Positions 67 through 12,666 of a DNA stretch of 12,795 nt are shown one piece after another. Where the stretch lies: positions 1 through 12,795 of the forward strand of contig JBKGZT010000037.1 of the NCBI GenBank assembly GCA_046543235.1. Reading direction: 5' to 3'. Position numbers and translations under genes: made by a program. Below the pieces are notes generated by a model, which searched no databases, was not told the origin of the DNA, and worked only from the letters and a program-made list of their open reading frames with translations. Origin of the DNA: Candidatus Acetothermia bacterium (GTDB lineage Bacteria; Bipolaricaulota; Bipolaricaulia; M55B111). Each line of letters begins with the position of its first letter. Within the stretch, counting starts at the first letter, position 1.

Positions 67-76
67 CAGGGTGACC

Positions 77-1306
77 ATGAAAAACTTACCGAGCAGGGAC
101 GGACCCAGCAGCATAAGCCGTAACCTAATGCATGATCTTAATACCCGCGCAGTAACCTCCTTGCTCTACAATAACGGGGCGCAATCTAGGACGGAGATAG
201 CCAGCAACACCAATTTAACCCGCCCCACCATTTCAAATATAACGTCCAAGCTCCTATCGGCAGGCTTAATTGAAGAAGTAGGTGTAGGGGAATCCACCGG
301 CGGCAGAAAACCTACTCTCCTGGACATAAACGAGGAATTCGGCTACGTAATGGCCGTTAAAATAGAAGCGCGCAAAGTCATAACCGGGCTTTACGACTTG
401 AAAACGAACAAGGTAACCGGAAAGATAACCGACCATCCGGCCAACCCGGCACCCGAGCTGGTTTTAAGACATGTCAGAAAGGATTACGAAGACTACGCGG
501 ACCGCGAGGGGGTCGTCGGGCTGGGTATCGGGGTTTCGGGGCTAATTTCCGACTCGGGGGAAATAATCTACAGCCCGATTCTGGACTGGAAGAGGGTTCC
601 AATCGCCGAAAAGCTGGAAAGTCAGCTCTCCCTGCCGGCAACCGTGGATAACGACGTCAACTCGTTGACCCTGGCAGAAAGTTGGGTGGGAGCTGGCAAG
701 GAATTCAGCGAGCTACTCTGTGTAACTGTAGGAGAGGGAATCGGTGCCGGCTTGATGGTAAACGATAGGCTTTACCGCGGCTCCGTCGGTGGAGCCGGGG
801 AAATAGGCCATATAACACTTGACAGACAGGGGCCTCGGTGTCGCTGTGGCGAGGAAGGATGCCTGGAAGCACTTGCTTCGGATTATTTTCTGCAAAACGA
901 GATGCAAAGGAGGGGGCTAGTTCCTTCCACTGTCGAAAACCTGGCGAGCCTCGCCTCCAGGGGGCAAGCCGAGGGTCTGGAGATATTCCGAGAGATGGGG
1001 CACAACTTAGGCCTGGGAATCAAGAACTTGGTGAATACGCTCAACCCGGAGGCCGTTGTCCTCGGAGGAGAGAGAATGGAGCAGTCGGAATTCTTCCTCC
1101 AGGAAGCGAAAGGGGAGATCCTCAACCACTCTTTCCCCCGGGAAGCGAAGGACCTGGAAATCGTCCGTGCTTCACTCGGCAAGGAAGGATGGTTGATCGG
1201 GGCGGCCCTCCTGTCCATCAGAAACTTCCTGGGGCTACCACTTCACCGGAGGGCGTTCAAATCAAACCGGGAGTCCAGAGGTGTCCTGCAAACGGGAACC
1301 CAATAA
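77..1306 (+). CDS. ROK-family (XylR/NagC/Mlc-like) transcriptional repressor
   Basis: N-terminal winged HTH (SRTEIASNTNLTRPTISNITSKLL...GGRKP), ROK motifs DNDVN, GEGIGAG and GEIGH, and the zinc site CRCGEEGCLE. ATG 77 is preferred over GTG 71 because the SD-like AGGGTGA lies at 68-74, but the start is uncertain. Confidence 0.93.
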   Translation: MKNLPSRDGPSSISRNLMHDLNTRAVTSLLYNNGAQSRTEIASNTNLTRPTISNITSKLLSAGLIEEVGVGESTGGRKPTLLDINEEFGYVMAVKIEARKVITGLYDLKTNKVTGKITDHPANPAPELVLRHVRKDYEDYADREGVVGLGIGVSGLISDSGEIIYSPILDWKRVPIAEKLESQLSLPATVDNDVNSLTLAESWVGAGKEFSELLCVTVGEGIGAGLMVNDRLYRGSVGGAGEIGHITLDRQGPRCRCGEEGCLEALASDYFLQNEMQRRGLVPSTVENLASLASRGQAEGLEIFREMGHNLGLGIKNLVNTLNPEAVVLGGERMEQSEFFLQEAKGEILNHSFPREAKDLEIVRASLGKEGWLIGAALLSIRNFLGLPLHRRAFKSNRESRGVLQTGTQ

Positions 1307-1319
1307 AAGGGGTGAAAAT

Positions 1320-3647
1320 ATGTTAGGAAGTCGACAGGTGAATCAATGGTTTTTGCTGATTGGTTTATTGATTATAACATTAGCTATCACCGGGGTGAAT
1401 GATCCCGTGAATGCAGAGGAAGTCCGCTTTACCTACAAGCCGCTACCCGGGGAGGAAATTGATTCGCTATACCTACGCGGCTCCTTCAACGGATGGGGCA
1501 AGGATGAGATGTCAGAAAGGGCGGACGGAAACTGGTCAACCACGTTAGACCTACAGCCGGGACGGTATCAGTACAAGTTCTTTTCCCAGGACTTCGCCTG
1601 GGCATCCGACGGTTGGCCCGGGGACATGGAAACCGCACGGGAAGGAGAACCGGTCGACCCGGACGCGGATGATTACGCCGACGACGGATTTGGTGGACAA
1701 AACGCAGTCATGGTAGTAGGGGGTGGTGAAGTGGACGCCGACGTCGGGGACGGAAAGATAGATCGAGAGGGCCTCCGGTTCGAACAGGACGAACTGCGTT
1801 TCTTCAACCTCGTTCCCGGCGGAAAACTAGTTGTCACGTTCGCGGCCACGGAAACCGACGTCGAAGAAGTCGTATTCCACTACGGCGAGGAGGACGTGAC
1901 GCTGGAGAGGTTCGCCACCATGGACGGGAAGGATTTCTTCCGGGGCAAGGTTAGCCCACCCGAAGATGAATTCGAATATAACTTCCTGGTAAAAGACGGA
2001 GAAGAGTCGGTCTGGTACAACCCCGCCGGGGAGGTAAGCGGGTCCGAAAAGGACCCCGGGATCTTTCGGCCTCGGGACAAAAAGGTTTTCCAAACCCCCG
2101 ATTGGGTAAGGGATGCGACGTTCTATCAGATCTTCCCGGATAGGTTTTATAATGCGGTTGAGGACAACGATCCGGAGAAGATCGAACTATACAGGAAACC
2201 CGGCAAACGCTACGACGCATTCATTCCCGACTGGGACCAGGGAGTACCGGAAGGATCGCCGCCGGTCCTCAGGGATCCCTCCGAGCTGACTGACCGCTCC
2301 AACGAGGTAAAACCGGAGGGCGGATACTACGTCTTTTATGGCGGAGACCTGCAGGGGATCGAGGAGAAGATACCTTACCTGAAAGAACTGGGTATAAACG
2401 CCATCTACTTCAACCCTCTTTTCGAATCCAACTCCAACCATCGGTACAGCACCGCCGACTATAGATACATCGACGGGAACCTGGCCTACAAGGACGATCC
2501 CGAAAAATCCAACGAATACGCATTTAAGCTCATTGAAAAGCTGCACGATCACGGGATCAGGGTCATCTTCGACGCAGTATTTAACCATTCCGGTTACGAG
2601 CACTGGGCTTTTCAGGACGTGGTTGAGAATGAAGAGGAGTCCGAGTATAAAGATTGGTTCTTTATCGATAGCTTTCCGATCATCCCGCTGGCAGAACAAA
2701 GTGAGAGCACCGAGCCGAATTACGGAGCCTGGTGGGGGTACGGATCCCTGCCGGAACTGGACACGGAAAATCCCGAGGTGCGCCAGCACCTTTTCGAGAT
2801 AACGGAAAAATGGATGGATCCAGATGTCGGGGAAGGGGTGGACGGCTGGCGCCTGGACGTACCCAACGAGATCGCCAACCGGGATCCTGATTTCTGGCGG
2901 GAGTGGCGGGAACACGTTAAATCCATCGACGAGGACGCGTACATAGTGGGAGAAATATGGGAAGATGCCTCTTCCTACCTGAACGGAAATCAGTTCGACG
3001 CCGTAATGAACTATCGATTCCGAGACGCCGTAATGGACTTCATCGCCAGCGGCGAAATTACTAGCCAGGAGTTTGCCGAAGAGATGACCCGGTTAAAGCT
3101 GGATTATCCCTCTCAGAGTTTTAATTCACTGCTAAATCTAGTCGACAGCCATGACACGAAGCGTTTCTTGACGGCAGCAGGGGGGGACAAAGAAAGACTC
3201 AAACTCGCTGCGCTGCTTCAATTTACACTGCCGGGCGCCCCGATGGTATATTACGGGGACGAGCGAGGTATGAGAGGTGGCGAAGATCCGGACTGCAGGA
3301 GGACGATGCTATGGAAGGACCGAGGCTACAAGGAACCCGATAAAAACTTGCAGGGATACTACGAGACACTAATCGACTTGAGAGACGAAAGGATTGCTTT
3401 ACGTCGCGGGGATTTCACCCAGCTAGACTTTAAACCCGAAATGGTCTACGGTTTCGAGAGAAAGACCGACGAGGAAGAGATCCTCGTGATCCTAAATGCG
3501 GGTAAAGATCCCACAAAAGTTGTAATACCCATCGAATCCGACCACAACGAACCTTTTGATCTTTTGAACAACCGTAAATTAAAAGCAAACGAGGAAAGCC
3601 TGGAGCTAGAACTCGATTCTCTCCAGGGGGCTATTATAACTTTTTGA
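1320..3647 (+). CDS. Secreted GH13 alpha-amylase-family enzyme (neopullulanase/cyclomaltodextrinase/amylopullulanase-like) with an N-terminal CBM48-like domain
   Basis: Hydrophobic signal peptide ending VNA|EE. CBM48/AMPK-like segment YLRGSFNGW...LQPGRYQYKF. Catalytic motifs PDWVRDATFYQIFPDRF, GGDLQG, DAVFNH, DGWRLDVPNE, GEIW, DSHD, YYGDE and DPDCRR. ATG 1320 follows SD GGGGTGA (GTG 1338 is an alternative start). Confidence 0.92.
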   Translation: MLGSRQVNQWFLLIGLLIITLAITGVNDPVNAEEVRFTYKPLPGEEIDSLYLRGSFNGWGKDEMSERADGNWSTTLDLQPGRYQYKFFSQDFAWASDGWPGDMETAREGEPVDPDADDYADDGFGGQNAVMVVGGGEVDADVGDGKIDREGLRFEQDELRFFNLVPGGKLVVTFAATETDVEEVVFHYGEEDVTLERFATMDGKDFFRGKVSPPEDEFEYNFLVKDGEESVWYNPAGEVSGSEKDPGIFRPRDKKVFQTPDWVRDATFYQIFPDRFYNAVEDNDPEKIELYRKPGKRYDAFIPDWDQGVPEGSPPVLRDPSELTDRSNEVKPEGGYYVFYGGDLQGIEEKIPYLKELGINAIYFNPLFESNSNHRYSTADYRYIDGNLAYKDDPEKSNEYAFKLIEKLHDHGIRVIFDAVFNHSGYEHWAFQDVVENEEESEYKDWFFIDSFPIIPLAEQSESTEPNYGAWWGYGSLPELDTENPEVRQHLFEITEKWMDPDVGEGVDGWRLDVPNEIANRDPDFWREWREHVKSIDEDAYIVGEIWEDASSYLNGNQFDAVMNYRFRDAVMDFIASGEITSQEFAEEMTRLKLDYPSQSFNSLLNLVDSHDTKRFLTAAGGDKERLKLAALLQFTLPGAPMVYYGDERGMRGGEDPDCRRTMLWKDRGYKEPDKNLQGYYETLIDLRDERIALRRGDFTQLDFKPEMVYGFERKTDEEEILVILNAGKDPTKVVIPIESDHNEPFDLLNNRKLKANEESLELELDSLQGAIITF

Positions 3648-3736
3648 AGCGTGAGGAGGTGGTTAACCGGCCACTGACGTTTCGGCCATGGTCTTAAAGC
3701 CTTTTAACAGAAATCCAAAACGGGAGTGATCTTCAG

Positions 3737-4927
3737 ATGAAAAAGCTAGTAGCTTTAACTCTAGCAATTGTTTTACTAGGAGTTGGCTTTTCGGCGCTCG
3801 GTTCGACCAGCGGCGAGCTAAGAATATGGGGAGATGAACGCATCACGGCTCTGGAACCTCTGGCTGAGGACTTCGAAGAGGATTACGGCGTGGAAGTGGA
3901 ACTGGTCGAGGTTCCTTTCGGGGACATTCGGACGAAAATGGAAAACGCCGGACCCTCCGGGGAAGGACCGGACATACTGATTGGCGCACATGACTGGACA
4001 GGAGAACTTGCCAAGAACGGCCTCATAGACCCGCTCCTGTACATGGAAGACCAGCAGGACGACTTCGTCGATGTATCCGTAGAGGGATTCACTTACAGCG
4101 ACAAAATCTACGGGTTGCCTTACGCATTTGAGGCAATCGCCCTCATTTACAACACGGAGATGGTACCGGAAGCTCCGGAAACCTGGGAAGAAGTAGTTGA
4201 AATTTCCAAGGAACGCAGGGAAAGCGAAGAGGAAAACTACGGCTTTGTCTATCCAGGGACAGGTGACCCCTACCACACGTATCCGTTCATTAGCGCCTAC
4301 GGCGGTTACATATTTGCCTATGACGGCGGATTTGACCCGGACGACATCGGTTTGGATACGGAAGGCGCCATCAAGGGACTGGAGAAACTCGACGAGATGT
4401 ACAAAGAGGGCTACCTGCCCGAAGGCATAGATTACGGAACCGCCGCCAGCTGGTTCAACGATGGCAAGGCCGCGATGTTCATGACCGGCCCCTGGGAGAT
4501 ACCCGCGATCAGAGAAGCCGGGATTGACTTCGAAGTAGCACCGCTGCCGGCAATGGATGGTAACCAAATGAAGCCTTTCGTCGGAGCACAGGGCTTCATG
4601 CTGAGTGCCTTCAGCGAGAACAAGGTACTGGCCAACGAGTTCCTCAAGAGCTACATAGCCACCGACGAAGCGATGACCTTGATTTACGAGGAAAACGAAA
4701 GACCTCCGGCATACATACCCACCCTGGATAAGGTCGAGGAGGAACCGGTGGTCTCGGCCTTTTCCGAAAGTGCTCGGGTCGGAGTGCCGATGCCCAACAT
4801 ACCGGAAATGGGCGCGGTCTGGGAAAATCTAGGAAACCAGCTCCAGTTGATTTCGCAACAAAAACAGGAACCGAAAGCGGCAATGGAAGACACGGTCGAG
4901 ATAATAAAACAATCGATAGACGAATAA
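3737..4927 (+). CDS. malE: Maltose/maltodextrin ABC transporter substrate-binding protein
   Basis: Signal peptide MKKLVALTLAIVLLGVGFSALG without a lipobox Cys. MalE-like motifs GPDILIGAHDW, YGLPYAFEAIALIYN, GKAAMFMTGPW, KPFVG and MPNIPEMGAVW. SD GGGAGTGA at 3722-3729. Confidence 0.9.
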   Translation: MKKLVALTLAIVLLGVGFSALGSTSGELRIWGDERITALEPLAEDFEEDYGVEVELVEVPFGDIRTKMENAGPSGEGPDILIGAHDWTGELAKNGLIDPLLYMEDQQDDFVDVSVEGFTYSDKIYGLPYAFEAIALIYNTEMVPEAPETWEEVVEISKERRESEEENYGFVYPGTGDPYHTYPFISAYGGYIFAYDGGFDPDDIGLDTEGAIKGLEKLDEMYKEGYLPEGIDYGTAASWFNDGKAAMFMTGPWEIPAIREAGIDFEVAPLPAMDGNQMKPFVGAQGFMLSAFSENKVLANEFLKSYIATDEAMTLIYEENERPPAYIPTLDKVEEEPVVSAFSESARVGVPMPNIPEMGAVWENLGNQLQLISQQKQEPKAAMEDTVEIIKQSIDE

Positions 4928-4938
4928 CAGGAGTGACC

Positions 4939-4971
4939 GGGCCCCGTCGATAAAGCGGGGCCCTATTTATT
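4939..4971 (+). terminator. GC-rich hairpin after malE (mRNA stabiliser or leaky intrinsic terminator)
   Basis: Perfect 8-bp stem GGGCCCCG (4939-4946) / CGGGGCCC (4956-4963) with a 9-nt loop, followed by TATTTATT. Confidence 0.7.
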
Positions 4972-6540
4972 ATGAAAAACTATCTAAAAAGTACGCTTCT
5001 CGGGACCAGCCTGAAAATCCTGGTGTTCGGATTACTCGATGCCCTGGTGGTCTGGGCGGCCAGCTTTCTCTACCTCAACGAAGGAACGTGGCTTGCTCTT
5101 GCTTTAGTAGTTGCCACGGGCTTGATAAACTGGATATTCCTATCGAAAAGAACTTATCCTTTGAGGTACCTGGTTCCAGGGCTGATATTCCTTTTTGCTT
5201 TCGTAGTTTACCCGATAGGTTATACCGTCTACCTTTCTTTCACAAATTACGGCACAGGGCACCTCCTTTCGAAATCACAGGCGATTGACAACCTGGAGGA
5301 CCAATATTACCAACCGGAAAATCCCAAAGGTTTCGACTTTGACGCTTACCACAACCCTGACGGGGAGCTGAAAGTTATCCTCCGTTCAAGTTCCGGCGAA
5401 GAGACTTACCTCACAGGGGGGAAGGAGCTGGAGCCGATAGATCCGGAGAGTGACCGTTTCGTCGATTCCGACGGGGATGGTACGATAGAGGAGTTTGACG
5501 ATTACGAACTGCTCCCTCGTAGCGAACTGATAGGCTCCCTTTCCGAACTCCAGAACTGGCGACCGGAGCGTGAAGAACTGGCAGTACGAATTACCGGAAT
5601 GAACCAATTCACCCAGTTGAATCAGCAGTACGTTTATCAGCCAGAAAAGGATAGAATGGTCGACCAGAAAACCGGAGAAGTATACGTTCCCGAGAACGGT
5701 GCCTTCGTCTCGCCTGAGTCGGGCAAGGAACTCGAACCGGGCTTCCAGATACACGTGGGCTTTGCGAACTTCCGGCGCGTCTTTACCGACCCACTGATAA
5801 CCGGGCCTTTTTTCCGGGTATTCACCTGGACCTTCGTCTGGGCTTTCTTGAGCGTACTTACCACTTTTCTCCTGGGCCTCGGTGCGGCATTGTTGTTAAA
5901 CGACGACGACCTCAGGTTTCAGCCGCTTTACAAGGCCGCGCTAATTATGCCATATGCGATACCGGCTTTCATCTCCGCCCTGATGTGGCGCGGTTTCTTC
6001 AACACCAACGCGGGAGTTGTGAACGCGAAGATATTCGAGCCCCTATTTAACGTGGCGGTACCCTGGTTCCAGAGCCCGATGCTGGCCAAAGTAGCCGTCC
6101 TAATCGTCAACCTCTGGCTCGGGTTTCCCTACATGATGGTGATTACCCTCGGGGCTCTCCAGAGCATCCAGCCCGCGTACTACGAGGTGGCCAAAGTGGA
6201 CGGCGCCAACCCCTGGCAGCAGTTTAAAAACATAACCCTGCCGCTCCTAATGATCTCTATCGCCCCGCTCTTAATTGGTTCATTTGCTTTTAACTTCAAC
6301 AACTTCAACGTCATATTTCTCGTCACGGAAGGAGACCCACCGATTGTAGGCGCCACGACGGCCGGCTCAACCGACATACTCATCTCCTACACCTACAAGA
6401 TGGCTTTTCAGGGTGAGGGCTCAAGCTACTATGGACTTGCGGCTGCCGTTTCGATAATTATATTCCTGATCATTGGGGCTATATCCGCATTTAATTTCCG
6501 TTACACGAACGTGCTTGAGGAGATGAGCGAAAATGTCTAG
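4972..6540 (+). CDS. malF: Maltose/maltodextrin ABC transporter permease with a large extracytoplasmic (P2-type) loop
   Basis: Three N-terminal TM helices (YPLRYLVPGL...YPIGYTVYLSFTNYG), a hydrophilic loop of roughly 170 aa, then VNLWLGFPYMM, the EAA loop YEVAKVDGANPWQQFKNITLPLL, FNFNNF and TDILISYTYK. Confidence 0.92.
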   Translation: MKNYLKSTLLGTSLKILVFGLLDALVVWAASFLYLNEGTWLALALVVATGLINWIFLSKRTYPLRYLVPGLIFLFAFVVYPIGYTVYLSFTNYGTGHLLSKSQAIDNLEDQYYQPENPKGFDFDAYHNPDGELKVILRSSSGEETYLTGGKELEPIDPESDRFVDSDGDGTIEEFDDYELLPRSELIGSLSELQNWRPEREELAVRITGMNQFTQLNQQYVYQPEKDRMVDQKTGEVYVPENGAFVSPESGKELEPGFQIHVGFANFRRVFTDPLITGPFFRVFTWTFVWAFLSVLTTFLLGLGAALLLNDDDLRFQPLYKAALIMPYAIPAFISALMWRGFFNTNAGVVNAKIFEPLFNVAVPWFQSPMLAKVAVLIVNLWLGFPYMMVITLGALQSIQPAYYEVAKVDGANPWQQFKNITLPLLMISIAPLLIGSFAFNFNNFNVIFLVTEGDPPIVGATTAGSTDILISYTYKMAFQGEGSSYYGLAAAVSIIIFLIIGAISAFNFRYTNVLEEMSENV

Positions 6541-7426
6541 AACCAGAGAATGGATGGAACGTTTCGTCAGCTGGTTTCTCGATATCGGGTTCAAACATCT
6601 GTTAATGCTGGTCCTCGTGGCCTTTGCCCTATTTCCGATCATCTGGATTATATCCGCCTCGATTAACCCCGTCGGATCGTTGGCCGGACAGCAGTTGATT
6701 CCCGAAAACGCCAATCTGGAGAACTACCGTATTTTCTTCACCAACGGCGGCGACGAATACAATGCCCCGTTTTTGCTCTGGCTCTGGAACAGCCTGAAGC
6801 TAGCAGTTCTAACCGGGGTGTTTGGGACCTTCATGTGTGCTCTCGGAGCATACGCCTTCTCCCGTTTCAGGTTTACCGGACGGAGAACCGGGTTGCTCGG
6901 GTTACTATTGATTCAGATGTTCCCCCAGATGCTGGCCATGGTTGCCATTTACGCCCTCCTTCTAAACTTAGGGTCATTTATTCCCTGGGCCGGGCTAAAC
7001 ACTCATCTGGGACTGCTGATGGTTTATCTGGGTGGAGCGCTGGGCTTCAACACCTGGCTTATGAAGGGGTACTTCGATTCCATCCCCCACTCGCTGGAAG
7101 AGTCGGCGCAGGTCGACGGGGCTTCACACTTCCAGGCATTTGTCCGGATAATTTTGCCCCTGGCACGACCGATTCTTACCGTTATCTTTATTTTGACAGT
7201 AATATCCGTCTACTCCGATTTCATCCTGGCCAGCATACTGCTGCAGGATTCGTCCAAATACACGCTCGCAGTCGGACTGAAGTTATTCATCTTCAACAAC
7301 TACGACGCCCGCTGGGGGATCTTTGCGGCCGCAGCCATAATCGGTGCCATCCCTATAGTGGTGATCTTCCTGGCCCTTCAGGATCAACTTATCAGCGGGT
7401 TAACCCAGGGTTCCGTGAAGGGTTAA
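6533..7426 (+). CDS. malG: Maltose/maltodextrin ABC transporter permease
   Basis: Motifs WLWNSLK, AYAFSRFRF, IQMFP and WLMKGYFDSIP, plus the EAA loop LEESAQVDGASHFQAFVRIILPLARP. C-terminus SGLTQGSVKG. Overlaps malF by 8 bp, with SD GAGGAG upstream. Confidence 0.93.
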   Translation: MSRTREWMERFVSWFLDIGFKHLLMLVLVAFALFPIIWIISASINPVGSLAGQQLIPENANLENYRIFFTNGGDEYNAPFLLWLWNSLKLAVLTGVFGTFMCALGAYAFSRFRFTGRRTGLLGLLLIQMFPQMLAMVAIYALLLNLGSFIPWAGLNTHLGLLMVYLGGALGFNTWLMKGYFDSIPHSLEESAQVDGASHFQAFVRIILPLARPILTVIFILTVISVYSDFILASILLQDSSKYTLAVGLKLFIFNNYDARWGIFAAAAIIGAIPIVVIFLALQDQLISGLTQGSVKG

Positions 7427-7463
7427 AAGAAAGATCAATAAAGCATCAAAAGGAGAGATAAGC

Positions 7464-9065
7464 ATGAAAGACCGACCATCCGTTGCGTATTTCTGCATGG
7501 AATACGGGCTTGCGGAAGAGATGAAGATCTACGCCGGCGGTCTCGGTATCCTGGCCGGAGATATCCTAAAATCAGCCCGACAGTACGATTACCCGATTCG
7601 GGGAATAGGAATTCTCTGGCGTCAGGGCTATACGAAGCAGACGATAAACGAAAAGGGTCGACCGGTCGACAGCTATCCTAGAAACGACTACATCTACGAT
7701 TACCTGGAAGACACCGGGATAAAGGTATCCGTAACCATTCGGGAAGAAGACGTAAGCTGTAAAGTCTGGAAGCTCGATAAGTACGGAAACGCTCCGCTCT
7801 ACCTGCTCGACACCAACCTCGAGGAAAATTCTAACAAGTGGATAACCGGCCAGCTCTACGGCTGGTTTGAGGAGGAGAGGATCGCACAGGAGATCGTCCT
7901 TGGTATAGGTGGAGTAAAGGCGTTGAGAAAGCTAGATTTCGAGCCCGATATATATCACTTCAACGAAGGCCATGCCGTCCTCGCGGGGACGGAGCTTATC
8001 AGGGAAAAAATCGAAGCCGGCCTCGGGTTCGAAGATGCGTACGATAAAACAAGGGAGGAGATTGTCTTTACTACCCACACGCCCGTCGAGCAGGGAAACG
8101 AAGAACATGGCTTCCGGACCATGAAGTACATGAACGCCTTTAACGGGCTGGCCGAATCGGAAATGAAGAGAATCGGCGGGAAACCCTTCAACATGACGGC
8201 AGCGGGCTTACGACTGGCTAAGGCGGCCAACGGGGTCTCCCAGCTCCACAAGGAAACGGCCAGAGAAATGTGGGACCACGTTGACGAGAGTCCTGAAATT
8301 CAGGGGATAACCAACGGGATTCACCGCGATACCTGGGTCGATTCGGAGATATCGGGGGCGGACGGAAAGGAAGAAATCTGGATGAGACACATGCAGCTCA
8401 AGAGTGATCTGATCGACTACGTCGAGGATAAGTCCGGAGTAAGGCTAGACGAGGACAAAATGATTATCGGCTTTGCCCGAAGGGCTGCCCCCTACAAACG
8501 GGCGGACCTAATATTTTCGGACGAGGAGAAAATATCCCCCTACCTGGAAAGCGGCGATATCCAGATCGTGTTTTCCGGCAAAGCCCATCCGCTCGACGAT
8601 ACAGGCAAAGCGATTATTAACGAACTCGTAGAAAAGGCCGAGCAATATCCTGAGAGCGTGGTCTTCCTCGAGGACTACGGGATCGAAATCGGGAGGAAGC
8701 TGACGCGTGGTTCCGACGTCTGGCTTAACAACCCTAGGAAGCCGCTGGAAGCCAGTGGTACCTCGGGAATGAAGGCCGCCATGAACGGAGTCTTGAACGT
8801 AAGCATACTTGACGGCTGGTGGCCGGAAGCCTGCGAACACGGCGTTAATGGCTGGCAGTTCGGGGATGGTTACGAAGGTGAAGACCAGGACGAGCACGAC
8901 AGGGAGGCGCTGTACGACGTTCTCCTTAATGAAGTTATACCAACCTACTACGAGGACAGGGGAAAGTGGAAGGAGATGATGGTAGAAAGCACGGAGAGCA
9001 CCTACCGGAAGTTCTCCGCGAAAAACATGCTGGAGGACTACTACGAGAGGATGTACGAAAAATAG
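7464..9065 (+). CDS. glgP: Alpha-glucan (maltodextrin/glycogen) phosphorylase, GT35, short form
   Basis: Motifs VAYFCMEYG, YAGGLGILAGD, HFNEGH, FTTHTP, ITNGIH, GFARR and GKAHP, plus the PLP-lysine motif EASGTSGMKAAMNG (Lys codon 8772-8774). SD AAGGAG at 7450-7455. Confidence 0.95.
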   Translation: MKDRPSVAYFCMEYGLAEEMKIYAGGLGILAGDILKSARQYDYPIRGIGILWRQGYTKQTINEKGRPVDSYPRNDYIYDYLEDTGIKVSVTIREEDVSCKVWKLDKYGNAPLYLLDTNLEENSNKWITGQLYGWFEEERIAQEIVLGIGGVKALRKLDFEPDIYHFNEGHAVLAGTELIREKIEAGLGFEDAYDKTREEIVFTTHTPVEQGNEEHGFRTMKYMNAFNGLAESEMKRIGGKPFNMTAAGLRLAKAANGVSQLHKETAREMWDHVDESPEIQGITNGIHRDTWVDSEISGADGKEEIWMRHMQLKSDLIDYVEDKSGVRLDEDKMIIGFARRAAPYKRADLIFSDEEKISPYLESGDIQIVFSGKAHPLDDTGKAIINELVEKAEQYPESVVFLEDYGIEIGRKLTRGSDVWLNNPRKPLEASGTSGMKAAMNGVLNVSILDGWWPEACEHGVNGWQFGDGYEGEDQDEHDREALYDVLLNEVIPTYYEDRGKWKEMMVESTESTYRKFSAKNMLEDYYERMYEK

Positions 9066-9084
9066 CCATAAGGTGGAAACCTAC

Positions 9085-10524
9085 ATGGGAAAACCGGATG
9101 ACAAGCTAAAGCATTTCGACGAAGCTGGTATCCGGAACCTCCGACCCCCTGACTGGGTAAGGGACACGGTATTTTACCAGATATTCCCGGATAGGTTTTA
9201 CAACGGCGATCCCTCCAACGACCCGGAGGACGCCGTGACGTGGGATGCTAACCCGACCCGTGATAACTTCTTCGGCGGAGACCTGGCCGGCGTTATGGAA
9301 AAACTGGATTACCTGGAAGAGCTGGGGGTCAACGGGATATATCTAAACCCGATATTTAAATCGCCCTCGAACCATAAGTACGATACCACGGATTACTACG
9401 AGATCGACCCGGCATTCGGCGATACTTCTCAACTAAAAGATCTCGTAAAGGCGGCCCATGAGAGAAACATCCGTGTAATTCTCGACGGCGTTTTTAACCA
9501 CTGCGGGGAAAACTTCCCTCAGTTCCAGGACCTCAAACAGAAGGGGCAGGAGTCGGAACACTGGAACTGGTTCGATGTCGACGATTTTCCCCCGAGAAAG
9601 GAACCGGAACCGAACTACCGATGCTGGGCAGGCGTACCAGAAATGCCGGAATTCGATCGGAGCAATCCTGATGTCAGACGGTTCCTGCTGGACGTAGCCA
9701 GGTACTGGATAGACGAGGCAGATATCGACGGATGGCGGCTGGATACCACCAACTACCTCGAACCGGGCTTCGTCAGATCCCTACGGATCGCTGCCCGGGA
9801 AGTAAAATCCGATGCTTACGTAATGGGAGAGGTCGTCGGCCCAGCGGCATCCTGGTTCAAATCGGGCTCTCTCGACGGAGTAATGAACTACGAGCTCTAT
9901 AAACTCTTGGTAGACCTCATTGCTAAAAGGCGTTATGGCCCTGAAGCCTTCCGACAGAGGCTATATTTCCTTCGCCGTTCCTATCCAGAATGGGCAAACT
10001 TTGCCAACTATAACCTACTCGGCAGCCACGACCGCCCGAGGTTTATGACTCTCTGTGAGGGGGACGTCGAAATATTCAAGCTTGGATATTTCCTCCTATT
10101 TGCTTTGCCGGGCGCTCCGGCGATCTACTACGGTGACGAAATCGGAATGGAGGGCGGAGACGATCCGGACTGCAGGCGGACTTTCCCATGGAAGGAAGAC
10201 ATCAGGAAGGAAGACCTCTTCTCTTTTTTTCAAGAACTGCTCAAACTCAGAGAAGAGCAGAGGCCGCTCAGGCGGGGGGAAGTTAAGGAAATTACTGCTC
10301 CCGCCCCGATATTTGCCCTGGTCAGGAAGACCGGAAGCGAGTTGGCTCTCGCTGCGGTAAATCCGAGCTCAAAATCGTGTAAGGCCGAAATAGCGTCAGA
10401 CCAGTTTCCGACAGCGGACAACCCGGAGACCCTGTTTGGACAGGGTTCCTGTTCATTCAGTTCCGGAGCGCTGAAGCTGGAGCTTCCCGGTTATGGTTTT
10501 TCCCTGCTGAAACTGGATGGCTAA
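9085..10524 (+). CDS. Cytoplasmic GH13 (cyclomaltodextrinase/maltodextrin glucosidase-like) lacking the N-terminal domain
   Basis: Motifs PDWVRDTVFYQIFPDRF, GGDLAG, SNHKYDT, DGVFNH, DGWRLD, MGE, GSHD, YYGDE and DPDCRR, with no signal peptide. ATG 9085 lies 8 nt after SD-like TAAGGTGG (9069-9076), so it is preferred over GTG 9073. Confidence 0.9.
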   Translation: MGKPDDKLKHFDEAGIRNLRPPDWVRDTVFYQIFPDRFYNGDPSNDPEDAVTWDANPTRDNFFGGDLAGVMEKLDYLEELGVNGIYLNPIFKSPSNHKYDTTDYYEIDPAFGDTSQLKDLVKAAHERNIRVILDGVFNHCGENFPQFQDLKQKGQESEHWNWFDVDDFPPRKEPEPNYRCWAGVPEMPEFDRSNPDVRRFLLDVARYWIDEADIDGWRLDTTNYLEPGFVRSLRIAAREVKSDAYVMGEVVGPAASWFKSGSLDGVMNYELYKLLVDLIAKRRYGPEAFRQRLYFLRRSYPEWANFANYNLLGSHDRPRFMTLCEGDVEIFKLGYFLLFALPGAPAIYYGDEIGMEGGDDPDCRRTFPWKEDIRKEDLFSFFQELLKLREEQRPLRRGEVKEITAPAPIFALVRKTGSELALAAVNPSSKSCKAEIASDQFPTADNPETLFGQGSCSFSSGALKLELPGYGFSLLKLDG

Positions 10525-10560
10525 TACATTAGAATACTTTCCTGGTACTGGAGGGGGAAG

Positions 10561-10989
10561 ATGTCCGGGAACACGAAGAAGTTAAAAATATATACCGACG
10601 GGGCTTCCCGGGGCAACCCCGGAGATGCCGCCTGGGCTTTCCTCATTCTGGATGAATCGGGAGACCCGATTGTCAAACGGTCCGGATACATAGGCCAAAC
10701 CACCAATAACCAGGCCGAGTATTATGCCGTAATACGGGCGTTACAACGGGCCCGTGAGTTTCCCTCCGAAAGAATACGGCTCCACTCGGACAGCCAGCTG
10801 CTGGTCAAACAGGTTACGGGCCAATGGAAGGTAAAGGACCCGGAACTGAAGCGCCTCCACGGACGGGTAAAAAGGGAGGCAAAGGGGGCTGCAAAAGTTA
10901 ATTTTGAACACGTTCCGAGGGACAACCGCTACGTAGCCCAGGCCGACCAGCTCTGTAACGACAGGCTGGACGAAATTCAGGATAAATAA
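10561..10989 (+). CDS. rnhA: Ribonuclease HI family protein (archaeal/actinobacterial-like RNase HI type)
   Basis: IYTDGASRGNPG, TNNQAEY, HSDSQLLVKQ and HVPR...ADQL supply the D-E-D-D acidic residues. SD GGAGGGG at 10550-10556. Confidence 0.9.
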   Translation: MSGNTKKLKIYTDGASRGNPGDAAWAFLILDESGDPIVKRSGYIGQTTNNQAEYYAVIRALQRAREFPSERIRLHSDSQLLVKQVTGQWKVKDPELKRLHGRVKREAKGAAKVNFEHVPRDNRYVAQADQLCNDRLDEIQDK

Positions 10990-11068: not shown

Positions 11069-11656
11069 ATGAACAATCACGAGTACGACATTGAAACCGA
11101 CATCGACCGGGTTATCTACACGTCAGAGGAGATCCAGGAACGGGTGAAGCAACTGGCCCGGCAGGTCGACGAGTACCTGAGGTCCAAGGTAAGCCGAAAG
11201 GAGATATGGGAACGCCCCCCGATCGCGGTATGTATTCTCCGGGGTGCTTCCGTCTTCATGGCGGACTTGACCAGGTACATGGACGTGCCGATCGAGTTCG
11301 ACTTCATGTCCGTATCGACCTACGGCGACGCAACCGAGCCAGGCGAGGTAAGAGTGATAAAGGACCTGGACCGCTCCATAAACGGGAGGATAGTTATCGT
11401 CGTCGAGGACATAGTCGACACCGGGGAAACCCTTCACCACCTGCTGAACAGCTTCAGGACGCGTAACCCGAAGGCCGTCAAGGTTAGTGCCCTGCTGGAC
11501 AAAAGCAGCAGAAGGAAAAAGGACGTAGAGATAGACTTCAAAGGGTTCGAGCTGGAGGAGGACCTGTTCCTGGTGGGCTACGGCATGGATTACGCCGGAC
11601 GATACCGCAACCTTCCATTCATCGGTACGTTAAGAGAGGAGTTGACCGAACAATAA
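11069..11656 (+). CDS. hpt: Hypoxanthine(-guanine) phosphoribosyltransferase
   Basis: Motifs CILRGASVFMADL and DFMSVSTYG, the PRPP motif VVEDIVDTGETL, LLDK, and FLVGYGMDYAGRYRNLPFIG. Confidence 0.95.
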   Translation: MNNHEYDIETDIDRVIYTSEEIQERVKQLARQVDEYLRSKVSRKEIWERPPIAVCILRGASVFMADLTRYMDVPIEFDFMSVSTYGDATEPGEVRVIKDLDRSINGRIVIVVEDIVDTGETLHHLLNSFRTRNPKAVKVSALLDKSSRRKKDVEIDFKGFELEEDLFLVGYGMDYAGRYRNLPFIGTLREELTEQ

Positions 11657-12666
11657 GCTCTTTTTACACCCTTGGTCTGGAGTCTTCCTGTGACGAGACG
11701 GGCGTGGGGATTGTCGAAGGAACGGATCGGATACTGACCAACAAAATATACTCCCAGGCCGACCTGCACGAAAAATACGGCGGTGTCGTACCGGAAATTG
11801 CCTCCCGTAATCACCTGAAGAAGTTCCATCCGCTTATAGAGGAGGCACTGGCCGAGGCCGACCTCACGCTGGACGAGATAGACCTCGTGGGAGCAACCTA
11901 CGGACCCGGTCTGGTCGGCCCGCTGCTGGTGGGGCTTTCCCTCGGCAAGTCACTCGGGTACTCGCTTGACGTTCCTTTCTTGGGGGTAAACCACCTCGAA
12001 GGGCACGTATTCGCTCACTACAGTTCTAACCGCTCCTCGCCACCTTTCCTCGCCCTGCTCGTTTCGGGTGGTCATACAAGCCTCGTGCTCGTCGAGGACT
12101 GGGGAGACTATCGGGAGCTTGGCTCCACGCGGGACGACGCTGCGGGAGAGGCCTTCGACAAAGTTGGCCAGATGACCGGGCTCGGCTACCCCGCCGGACC
12201 AAAGATCGACGAGATGAGCCAGGAAGGAGACCCGTTAGTTTACGACTTCCCCCGGCCAATGGTCGAGGAGGGGCTGGACTTTTCCTTCGCCGGATTAAAG
12301 AGTTCTGTCGCCAGAAAAGTGGAGCTTTCCGAAGAAGACTACGACCTTCCCGACCTGCTGGCGTCCTTCCAGGAGGCAGTAGTAGAGACCCTGGTTACCA
12401 AGGCGGTAAGGGGAGCCAAAGAGGCGGGAGTCGAAAAGATATCCGTAATGGGCGGCGTCTCGGCTAATTCCCGACTTAGAGACAAAATGAACGAGGCCGC
12501 CGGTGAAAACGGGATGGTCGCGACTTTTCCGCCCTTCGAACTCTGCACCGACAACGGAGCGATGATCGCCGTCACGGCAGCCTACAGGCACCTGACCAAA
12601 GGGGAATCATCCCCGCTCGACCTCGGGCCCGAACCCTCTCTGAAGCTGGGTCGTGAGGGTACCTGA
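11653..12666 (+). CDS. tsaD: tRNA N6-threonylcarbamoyladenosine (t6A) biosynthesis protein TsaD (Kae1/YgjD family), probable ATA start
   Basis: Motifs YGGVVPEIASRNH, GPGL, HLEGH, LLVSGGHT, TRDDAAGEAFDK, FSFAGLKS, GGVSAN and CTDNGAMI. The conserved N-terminal LGLESSCDET is in frame at 11671-11700, upstream of the ORF-track start 11704. Gene identity is secure, while the start position is inferred. Confidence 0.93.
   Translation: MSSFYTLGLESSCDETGVGIVEGTDRILTNKIYSQADLHEKYGGVVPEIASRNHLKKFHPLIEEALAEADLTLDEIDLVGATYGPGLVGPLLVGLSLGKSLGYSLDVPFLGVNHLEGHVFAHYSSNRSSPPFLALLVSGGHTSLVLVEDWGDYRELGSTRDDAAGEAFDKVGQMTGLGYPAGPKIDEMSQEGDPLVYDFPRPMVEEGLDFSFAGLKSSVARKVELSEEDYDLPDLLASFQEAVVETLVTKAVRGAKEAGVEKISVMGGVSANSRLRDKMNEAAGENGMVATFPPFELCTDNGAMIAVTAAYRHLTKGESSPLDLGPEPSLKLGREGT

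Follow-up and report, generated by a model that had tools for sequence, protein, structure and literature searches.

An ATA codon overlapping the hpt stop codon as the probable start of tsaD in a genus-level clade of Candidatus Acetothermia bacteria

Introduction

Near-cognate start codons, AUA among them, are already known and have been mapped experimentally, and the tsaD gene considered here adds to them. In Staphylococcus aureus, AUA or AUU starts have been described for infC, ccpN, citZ and cvfC1, with mapped AUA starts for the first three of these genes and, in reporters, an output lowered to approximately 10-30% of that obtained with AUG (PMC13009471). In Escherichia coli, infC starts at AUU and is subject to autoregulation by initiation factor 3 (IF3) (PMC4705826). 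A second group of known systems comprises the ATGA (-4) overlaps of termination-reinitiation (PMC6728339, PMC10666635), which are described as requiring NTGA (PMC10666635). In E. coli, re-initiation depends on initiator tRNA being formylated, and an excess of IF3 lowers it (PMC2268962). The present analysis concerns tsaD in a 12,795-nucleotide (nt) stretch of DNA from a Candidatus Acetothermia bacterium (GenBank assembly GCA_046543235.1, contig JBKGZT010000037.1), which is referred to as the window. Here, translation of tsaD probably starts at an AUA codon overlapping the stop of hpt, the gene just upstream, with initiation coupled to termination of hpt translation.

The tsaD AUA resembles the S. 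aureus sites in being a near-cognate AUH codon, in lying downstream of a Shine-Dalgarno-like motif and in being conserved among relatives. However, the S. aureus sites are described as free-standing, with an extended Shine-Dalgarno motif at normal spacing, and were mapped by experiment (PMC13009471), whereas the tsaD AUA overlaps an upstream stop codon, has its GGAG 11 nt away within the upstream gene and is proposed from sequence comparison. With the -4 overlaps, hpt and tsaD share the co-directional arrangement and the 4-nt overlap of start and stop, but the canonical examples combine NTG with a TGA stop (PMC10666635) and the hpt-tsaD junction combines ATA with TAA or TAG, with a coupling that is putative. 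Both infC and tsaD have a weak start codon of the class discriminated against by IF3. Unlike IF3, however, TsaD is not an initiation factor, so that no autoregulatory loop follows, and a dependence of tsaD on IF3 is presumed. No publication on a non-canonical tsaD start was found in the literature collection searched.

The hpt-tsaD junction

The whole of contig C36 makes up the window; it belongs to a metagenome-assembled genome, G000, of 1.32 Mb in 97 contigs with a completeness of 87%. The features at the junction are as follows.

11069 to 11656, forward strand: hpt, encoding hypoxanthine phosphoribosyltransferase of 195 amino acids, with the stop codon TAA at 11654-11656 (open reading frame and translation; TIGR01203).
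11637 to 11641, forward strand: AGGAG, a Shine-Dalgarno-like motif within the hpt coding region, 11 nt 5' of the ATA.
11653 to 11655, forward strand: ATA, the proposed tsaD start codon, which shares bases with the hpt stop (ATAA, 11653-11656).
11653 to 12666, forward strand: the tsaD coding sequence as proposed, with 337 codons and the stop codon TGA at 12664-12666 (translation, TIGR03723 and PDB alignments).
11665 to 11700, forward strand: YTLGLESSCDET, comprising the first strand of TsaD with its SCDET motif, 5' of the first canonical start and conserved in all relatives.
11704 to 11706, forward strand: GTG, the first canonical start codon in the frame, not taken to be the start; it encodes the valine of a conserved GVGI segment and is residue 18 counted from the ATA.

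The identities of both products are given by NCBIfam profile searches. The hpt product scored 182.5 bits against TIGR01203 (curated cut-off 150), which identifies it as an HGPRTase, and the tsaD product, the subunit of the threonylcarbamoyltransferase that forms threonylcarbamoyladenosine at tRNA position 37 (t6A37), scored 400.3 bits against the equivalog profile TIGR03723 (cut-off 296.1). The latter match is full-length: profile positions 2-312 of 314 correspond to TsaD residues 7-312 when residues are numbered from the ATA.

The open reading frame listing shows that the tsaD frame is closed by a TAG at 11485-11487, is open from 11488 and contains no ATG, GTG or TTG until the GTG at 11704. 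A start at that GTG would remove positions 2-12 of TIGR03723 and, with them, the first strand and the SCDET motif. In native-length solved TsaD chains (6nak_B, 4ydu_A, 8iey_A and 3zet_B), chain residue 3 pairs with residue 6 of the protein read from the ATA, and TsaD must therefore begin no more than a few codons upstream of the tyrosine codon at 11665. For the N-terminal strand and SCDET to lie at the distance from the N-terminus seen in solved TsaD proteins, translation has to begin at the ATA or close to it, and the ATA is the only plausible tsaD start in its frame. The profile and structure alignments and the open reading frame listing thus bear out what a preliminary description of this DNA had proposed: a frame lacking a canonical start before 11704, a conserved first strand upstream of the GTG, and an ATA at 11653 that overlaps the hpt stop and gives a product of 337 amino acids.

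The same description had placed the ATA 7 nt after an upstream motif, at the spacing of the malE Shine-Dalgarno sequence, and here the outcome is mixed. The motif, GGAGTTGA at 11638-11645, does lie upstream of the ATA, but its core GGAG ends 11 nt before it, beyond the mode of 5-8 nt in this genome.

Conservation of the ATA among relatives

A search of 41 genomes found full-length tsaD in 34. These include the genus of the window, a sister genus and a third genus of the same family, as well as other families of the class. Within the window's genus, tsaD was present in eight of 15 genomes, and the remaining seven are 71-86% complete. All eight of these genes, and that of one species of the sister genus (G017), have an ATA four codons before the conserved tyrosine and no ATG, GTG or TTG between the in-frame stop and the tyrosine. 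An ATAA or ATAG junction without a canonical start is consequently found in nine of the 12 family genomes that have tsaD, and in these nine species no near-cognate codon other than the ATA is conserved ahead of the conserved N-terminus. In two of them, G012 and G009, the in-frame stop lies just 11 and 19 codons before the tyrosine, which confines the N-terminus to stretches of that length. The other two species of the sister genus have ATA followed directly by ATG, with TAATG overlapping the hpt stop, so that an ATA four codons 5' of the tyrosine is present in 11/11 tsaD-bearing genomes of the two genera. The single genome of the third genus has an ATG immediately before the tyrosine.

Outside the family, canonical starts are the rule. 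All 18 outgroup loci of the class have one just before the conserved N-terminus (17 ATG, 1 GTG), and in a background set of 80 diverse and distant bacterial TsaD loci, with 44-52% identity, a canonical start was found 3-20 codons before SCDET in every case (80/80). In a tree of TsaD proteins, the window's genus and its sister form one clade (support 99/98) with the third genus outside it, and G017, which has ATA only, is sister to the two species with ATA-ATG (97/91). The ATG beside the ATA may have been lost twice, or lost once and then regained, which requires two events either way.

Metagenome contigs were scanned with a pattern that fixed the GGAG, the spacing and the conserved strand only and left the start region as N. 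Five contigs were found, all five with ATA and without ATG; one matches G017 and four are new variants, with TsaD identities of 76-81%. The ATA arrangement is consequently known from at least 13 distinct sequences with 69-81% TsaD identity, and the ATAA or ATAG overlap is present in all 13 ATA-only sequences. The arrangement is common to the whole genus-level clade.

These comparisons bear directly on the idea, raised in the preliminary description, that the ATA is a G-to-A consensus error or a recent ATGA-to-ATAA mutation, and on the further possibility that tsaD is in decay. The fragmented and incomplete metagenome-assembled source (97 contigs, 87% completeness) gives some reason to consider an error. 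However, the ATA recurs in eight other species genomes and five metagenome contigs, and the diversity of the at least 13 sequences that carry it refutes the idea. Moreover, 701 bases around the junction are identical, with no differing letter, in four Logan assemblies at a word depth of 29-43, a comparison that gives agreement between assemblies rather than per-read support; these were built separately, in one study, from metagenomes of hypersaline lake and microbial mat samples, and the source sample may be among them. Decay is also at odds with the strong purifying selection on tsaD, in which 175 of 319 residue columns are invariant compared with five of 319 third bases, a pattern indicative of a functional gene. 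Each genome has one full-length TsaD match, the second matches being short and TsaB-like. An error or a decaying gene can accordingly be given a negligible probability.

A start at another codon of the tsaD frame, giving a shortened TsaD, is also to be considered. One candidate is the CTG of the Gly-Leu-Glu segment at 11677-11679, eight codons past the ATA, and the other is the GTG at 11704. The CTG is present at codon +4 (counted from the tyrosine) in eight of the nine ATA-only species and might serve as an alternative or additional start, which is a point against exclusive use of the ATA; the GTG has in its favour that it is the first canonical codon. Nevertheless, the CTG is accounted for by a conserved leucine, and G017 has TTA in its place, leaving the ATA as the only canonical or near-cognate codon before the GTG at +13. 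The GTG itself is replaced by GTC or GTA in four of the nine species (G005, G012, G003 and G009). Either start would remove part or all of the first strand, although this region matches solved chains from residue 3 onward and the profile from position 2 onward. Such a start appears unlikely, and initiation at the ATA is the preferred reading.

Selection on the ATA and the Shine-Dalgarno motif

The overlap places the first A of the ATA at the third position of the last hpt codon, and the strength of its conservation can be judged against the rest of hpt. A codon alignment of the gene from 11 species, those of the window's genus and its sister, gave 187 gap-free columns without methionine or tryptophan. 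Third-codon positions were invariant in all 11 species in only four of these 187 columns, and synonymous sites are therefore essentially saturated. Three of the four lie in the last six codons and are the A of the ATA and the two Gs of AAGGAG. Given a rate of 4/187, the chance that three columns named beforehand are all invariant is approximately 4e-6, by a simple count over related species that is not a phylogenetic test. That three of the four invariant synonymous sites of hpt serve the downstream gene is an unusually clean comparative signal. The fourth invariant position, at alignment column 175, is off the junction, about 25 codons before the hpt stop.

The bases around these positions give the same picture. 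The last hpt codon is CAA in seven species, AAA in one, CCA in one and GAA in two, such that the amino acid varies and the final A is constant. In G000, CAA makes up only 21% of glutamine codons and CCA only 11% of proline codons, and an A stands directly before the stop codon in no more than 309 of 1159 genes. The hpt stop across the 11 species is TAA in six and TAG in five and is never TGA, so that no NTGA overlap occurs; the tsaD stop is TGA in four of the same 11 species, TGA ends 414 of the 1159 genes of G000, and ATGA is the commonest overlap in that genome (51 pairs). The ATA shares its third base with the middle position of the hpt stop, and this base is not G in any of the 11 species. 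A single A-to-G change would retain the hpt stop and create ATGA, and was seen in none of the 11. All 15 junctions that were aligned share the GGAG without change.

Three points weigh against the proposed AUA start. The spacing of 11 nt between GGAG and ATA is found in only 24 of 310 GGAG-ATG pairs of G000, in which the mode is 5-8 nt. The ATA is also retained in the two sister-genus species that have an ATG right after it, suggesting that part of the conservation may be due to shared ancestry. Finally, the species are related and the counts are not independent; the 4/187 comparison applies the same tree to all columns and is a simple count.

Coding of hpt does not account for the degree to which the ATA and the GGAG are conserved. 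The concentration of three of the four invariant hpt sites at the junction supports selection for a weak start codon, rather than mere tolerance of one.

Coupling to hpt and the frameshift alternative

In the proposed mechanism, the ordinary initiator formylmethionyl-tRNA with the anticodon CAU would be placed on the near-cognate AUA, either by a ribosome fresh from termination on hpt or by a 30S subunit bound to the AAGGAG that lies 11 nt upstream. The geometry would be that of the common ATGA overlap, with a weak start codon in place of AUG (AUAA here, AUAG in some relatives). Initiation at the AUA would presumably be subject to discrimination by IF3. With a weak start codon in a coupled overlap, TsaD would be made at a low level, proportional to translation of hpt. 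We infer the codon actually used, the coupling to hpt and the low output level from the sequence and its comparison with relatives. The translationally coupled AUA start of the preliminary description is upheld in that the ATA is the most likely start and is conserved in nine species beyond what hpt coding requires, and its coupling is a matter of probability. The suggestion that the ATA lowers TsaD levels is plausible, and is accompanied by the observation that the hpt stop is never the TGA that would give ATGA.

The two genes are also associated outside the two genera with the ATA. Of the 19 loci L013-L031, one from the third-genus genome and 18 from genomes that belong to other families of the class, 15 have hpt immediately 5' of tsaD, and the pair is therefore an old unit. 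In four of these the distance between the genes is -4 (ATGA or TTGA), an overlap of the pair that is thus known from another family of the class; of the others, one has a distance of 524 nt and the rest lie between 0 and 65 nt.

A programmed -1 ribosomal frameshift towards the 3' end of hpt, yielding an Hpt-TsaD fusion, would dispense with a tsaD start. In the window, 59 codons of open tsaD frame precede the tyrosine codon, and three relatives have an A-AAA-AAG heptamer in the hpt frame. However, among the 13 ATA-only sequences, the last 25 hpt codons contain an X-XXY-YYZ heptamer in four and none in nine, including the window, and most relatives have in-frame stops 11 to 21 codons upstream. 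Nor is there a conserved downstream structure: no conserved RNA structure was found at the junction, the consensus energy being -1.41 kcal/mol with no covarying pairs, and the window gave a z of 0.73. Frameshifting is thus highly improbable, and coupled initiation at the AUA remains the explanation favoured here.

A hairpin in the window, formed by GAGAGGAG with the first tsaD codons, was also considered and was rejected, being no better than shuffled sequences (z = 0.73) and not conserved. In this genome alone, between 11634 and 11665, the ATA is flanked by GAGAGGAGUU and AGCUCUUUUU, whose pairing would mask the Shine-Dalgarno-like motif; this fold has the same z of 0.73 and the pairing is unconserved.

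Other near-cognate starts in the lineage

Two further genes of the lineage appear to have near-cognate starts that are conserved. In G000, infC (G000:C23:3885-4385, reverse strand) has no ATG, GTG or TTG before its conserved region, and an ATC start lies behind AGGAGGAGGGAGAAA; when residues are numbered from the ATC, profile positions 3-167 match residues 3-164. The start is ATC behind GGAGGGA in all 18 family genomes in which infC was found. Elsewhere in the class, several families have ATT or ATA instead. The second gene, prmC, encodes the release-factor glutamine methyltransferase (G000:C86:49020-49886, reverse strand). In many genomes of the window's genus, it has no canonical start before a conserved N-terminal WTVKEILDWT segment. 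In 19 of 19 family genomes, a CTG takes the place of the ATG seen in G019, a genome of family f2, and follows GAGGGA or GAGTGA at a distance of 6 nt. The CTG is preceded by ATA, ATC or ATT in 18 genomes, and an in-frame TGA lies two codons before it in five.

The tsaD junction is the sole case of its kind in G000. A survey of gene junctions in this genome gave 29 pairs, with gaps of 25-150 nt, in which the downstream frame ran uninterrupted through the upstream stop, and five of these had an ATA at the overlap. The four other than hpt-tsaD have good GGAGG-ATG starts downstream, such that no second ATAA or ATAG junction start was found among the 29 pairs. A looser survey of Shine-Dalgarno motifs with near-cognate codons gave 76 of 650 in frame versus 107 of 1221 out of frame, a weak enrichment, and most of the instances are explained by a nearby canonical start. 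Four candidates, gatA, lysS, an aminotransferase and rarA, were rejected as being compatible with canonical starts.

Three other genes of G000 have unusual 5' ends. An oppD-like ABC ATPase gene (G000:C44:8049-9035, forward strand) has an apparent ATC start, 5 nt past the upstream stop, with profile position 1 at residue 5 and the first canonical codon at residue 30. The ATC is common to an 86%-identical gene of G011, and 50%-identical homologues have ATG. An aldo/keto reductase gene (G000:C67:4642-5523, forward strand) has ACG ATC. Of 13 relatives compared, 10 have an ATG here and then ATA, ATC or ATT, and the remaining three have ATG at the second of the two positions. The first canonical start of the G000 gene lies 31 residues past the beginning of the Pfam domain. 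The ACG may represent either a species-specific loss of the start codon or a near-cognate start. In an amidohydrolase-family gene (G000:C48:6607-7812, forward strand), ATC ATT lies behind GAGGAGGGATAA, the first canonical codon is residue 12 and weak profile matches extend from residue 6, and this is possibly a further near-cognate start.

Initiator tRNA and the t6A pathway

A variant initiator tRNA might read AUA directly, and the tRNA genes were examined with this in mind. G000 has 28 tRNAs, with a single CAT tRNA whose first position is paired (GGGTCC...GGGCCCACCA). We take this tRNA not to be the initiator, the gene for which is presumably unassembled in G000. An initiator-type anticodon stem-loop was found in eight relatives of the genus, with CAT in 8/8 and TAT in none. 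ARAGORN confirmed tRNA-Met genes in two of four such loci examined, the other two being cut at contig ends, and called no tRNA gene at L134, a locus found through a match with GAT. A variant initiator is unsupported, the initiator-type stem-loops of the relatives all having CAT. In two relatives (L120:1472-2334 in G009 and L127:1472-2298 in G003), a tRNA cluster contains three tRNA-Met(CAT) genes, directly followed by a transfer-messenger RNA gene; two of the three have an initiator-type anticodon stem-loop and lie approximately 270 nt apart.

The preliminary description had also suggested that the start serves in a fidelity-sensing feedback on t6A. In such a scheme, the weak AUA start would act as a sensor of the pathway, with low t6A altering the fidelity of AUA initiation and raising TsaD output. 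The scheme has some appeal, in that TsaD, by family assignment, makes t6A37 on ANN-reading tRNAs and the ATA is conserved and apparently protected from turning into ATG. However, the bacterial initiator tRNA is described as the unique ANN-decoding tRNA without t6A (PMC4705826), which leaves no direct route from TsaD activity to initiation at AUA. In addition, the ATC of infC and the CTG of prmC are near-cognate starts in genes that are not of the t6A pathway, and such a start is consequently not specific to it. Two sister species, moreover, have an ATG right after the ATA. The sensor is unsupported and must be regarded as very unlikely.

Neighbouring genes

Upstream of the junction, at 71-10989, the window carries a cluster for the use of maltodextrin, comprising genes for a ROK-family regulator, a GH13 glucosidase (788 amino acids), malE, malF, malG, an alpha-glucan phosphorylase and a cyclomaltodextrinase-like enzyme. 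Between this cluster and hpt lies a gene for RNase HI.

Implications

Gene finders that accept ATG, GTG and TTG only would call tsaD from the GTG at 11704, with the loss of 17 residues including the first strand, and every species of the clade would be affected. Overlaps of 4 nt between stop and start are not limited to NTGA: ATAA and ATAG exist and are invisible to surveys of canonical annotation, and since overlap surveys presuppose NTGA, an ATAA overlap escapes them.

A broader role for these starts can be raised as a tentative and rather doubtful conjecture. In this family from hypersaline mats, selection might maintain weak near-cognate starts on a few genes for translation quality, infC (AUC), prmC (CUG) and tsaD (AUA). 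These would form an IF3-responsive post-transcriptional regulon based on start codons, in which t6A synthesis and release-factor methylation are tied to initiation fidelity and selection actively prevents the AUA from turning into AUG.

With infC (ATC) and prmC (CTG) beside it, tsaD adds to the view of near-cognate starts as a recurrent and under-annotated means of low, coupled expression. An AUA placed on an upstream stop is a rare but known means to that end, and here it would appear to be used on an essential tRNA-modifying gene of uncultured salt-lake bacteria.

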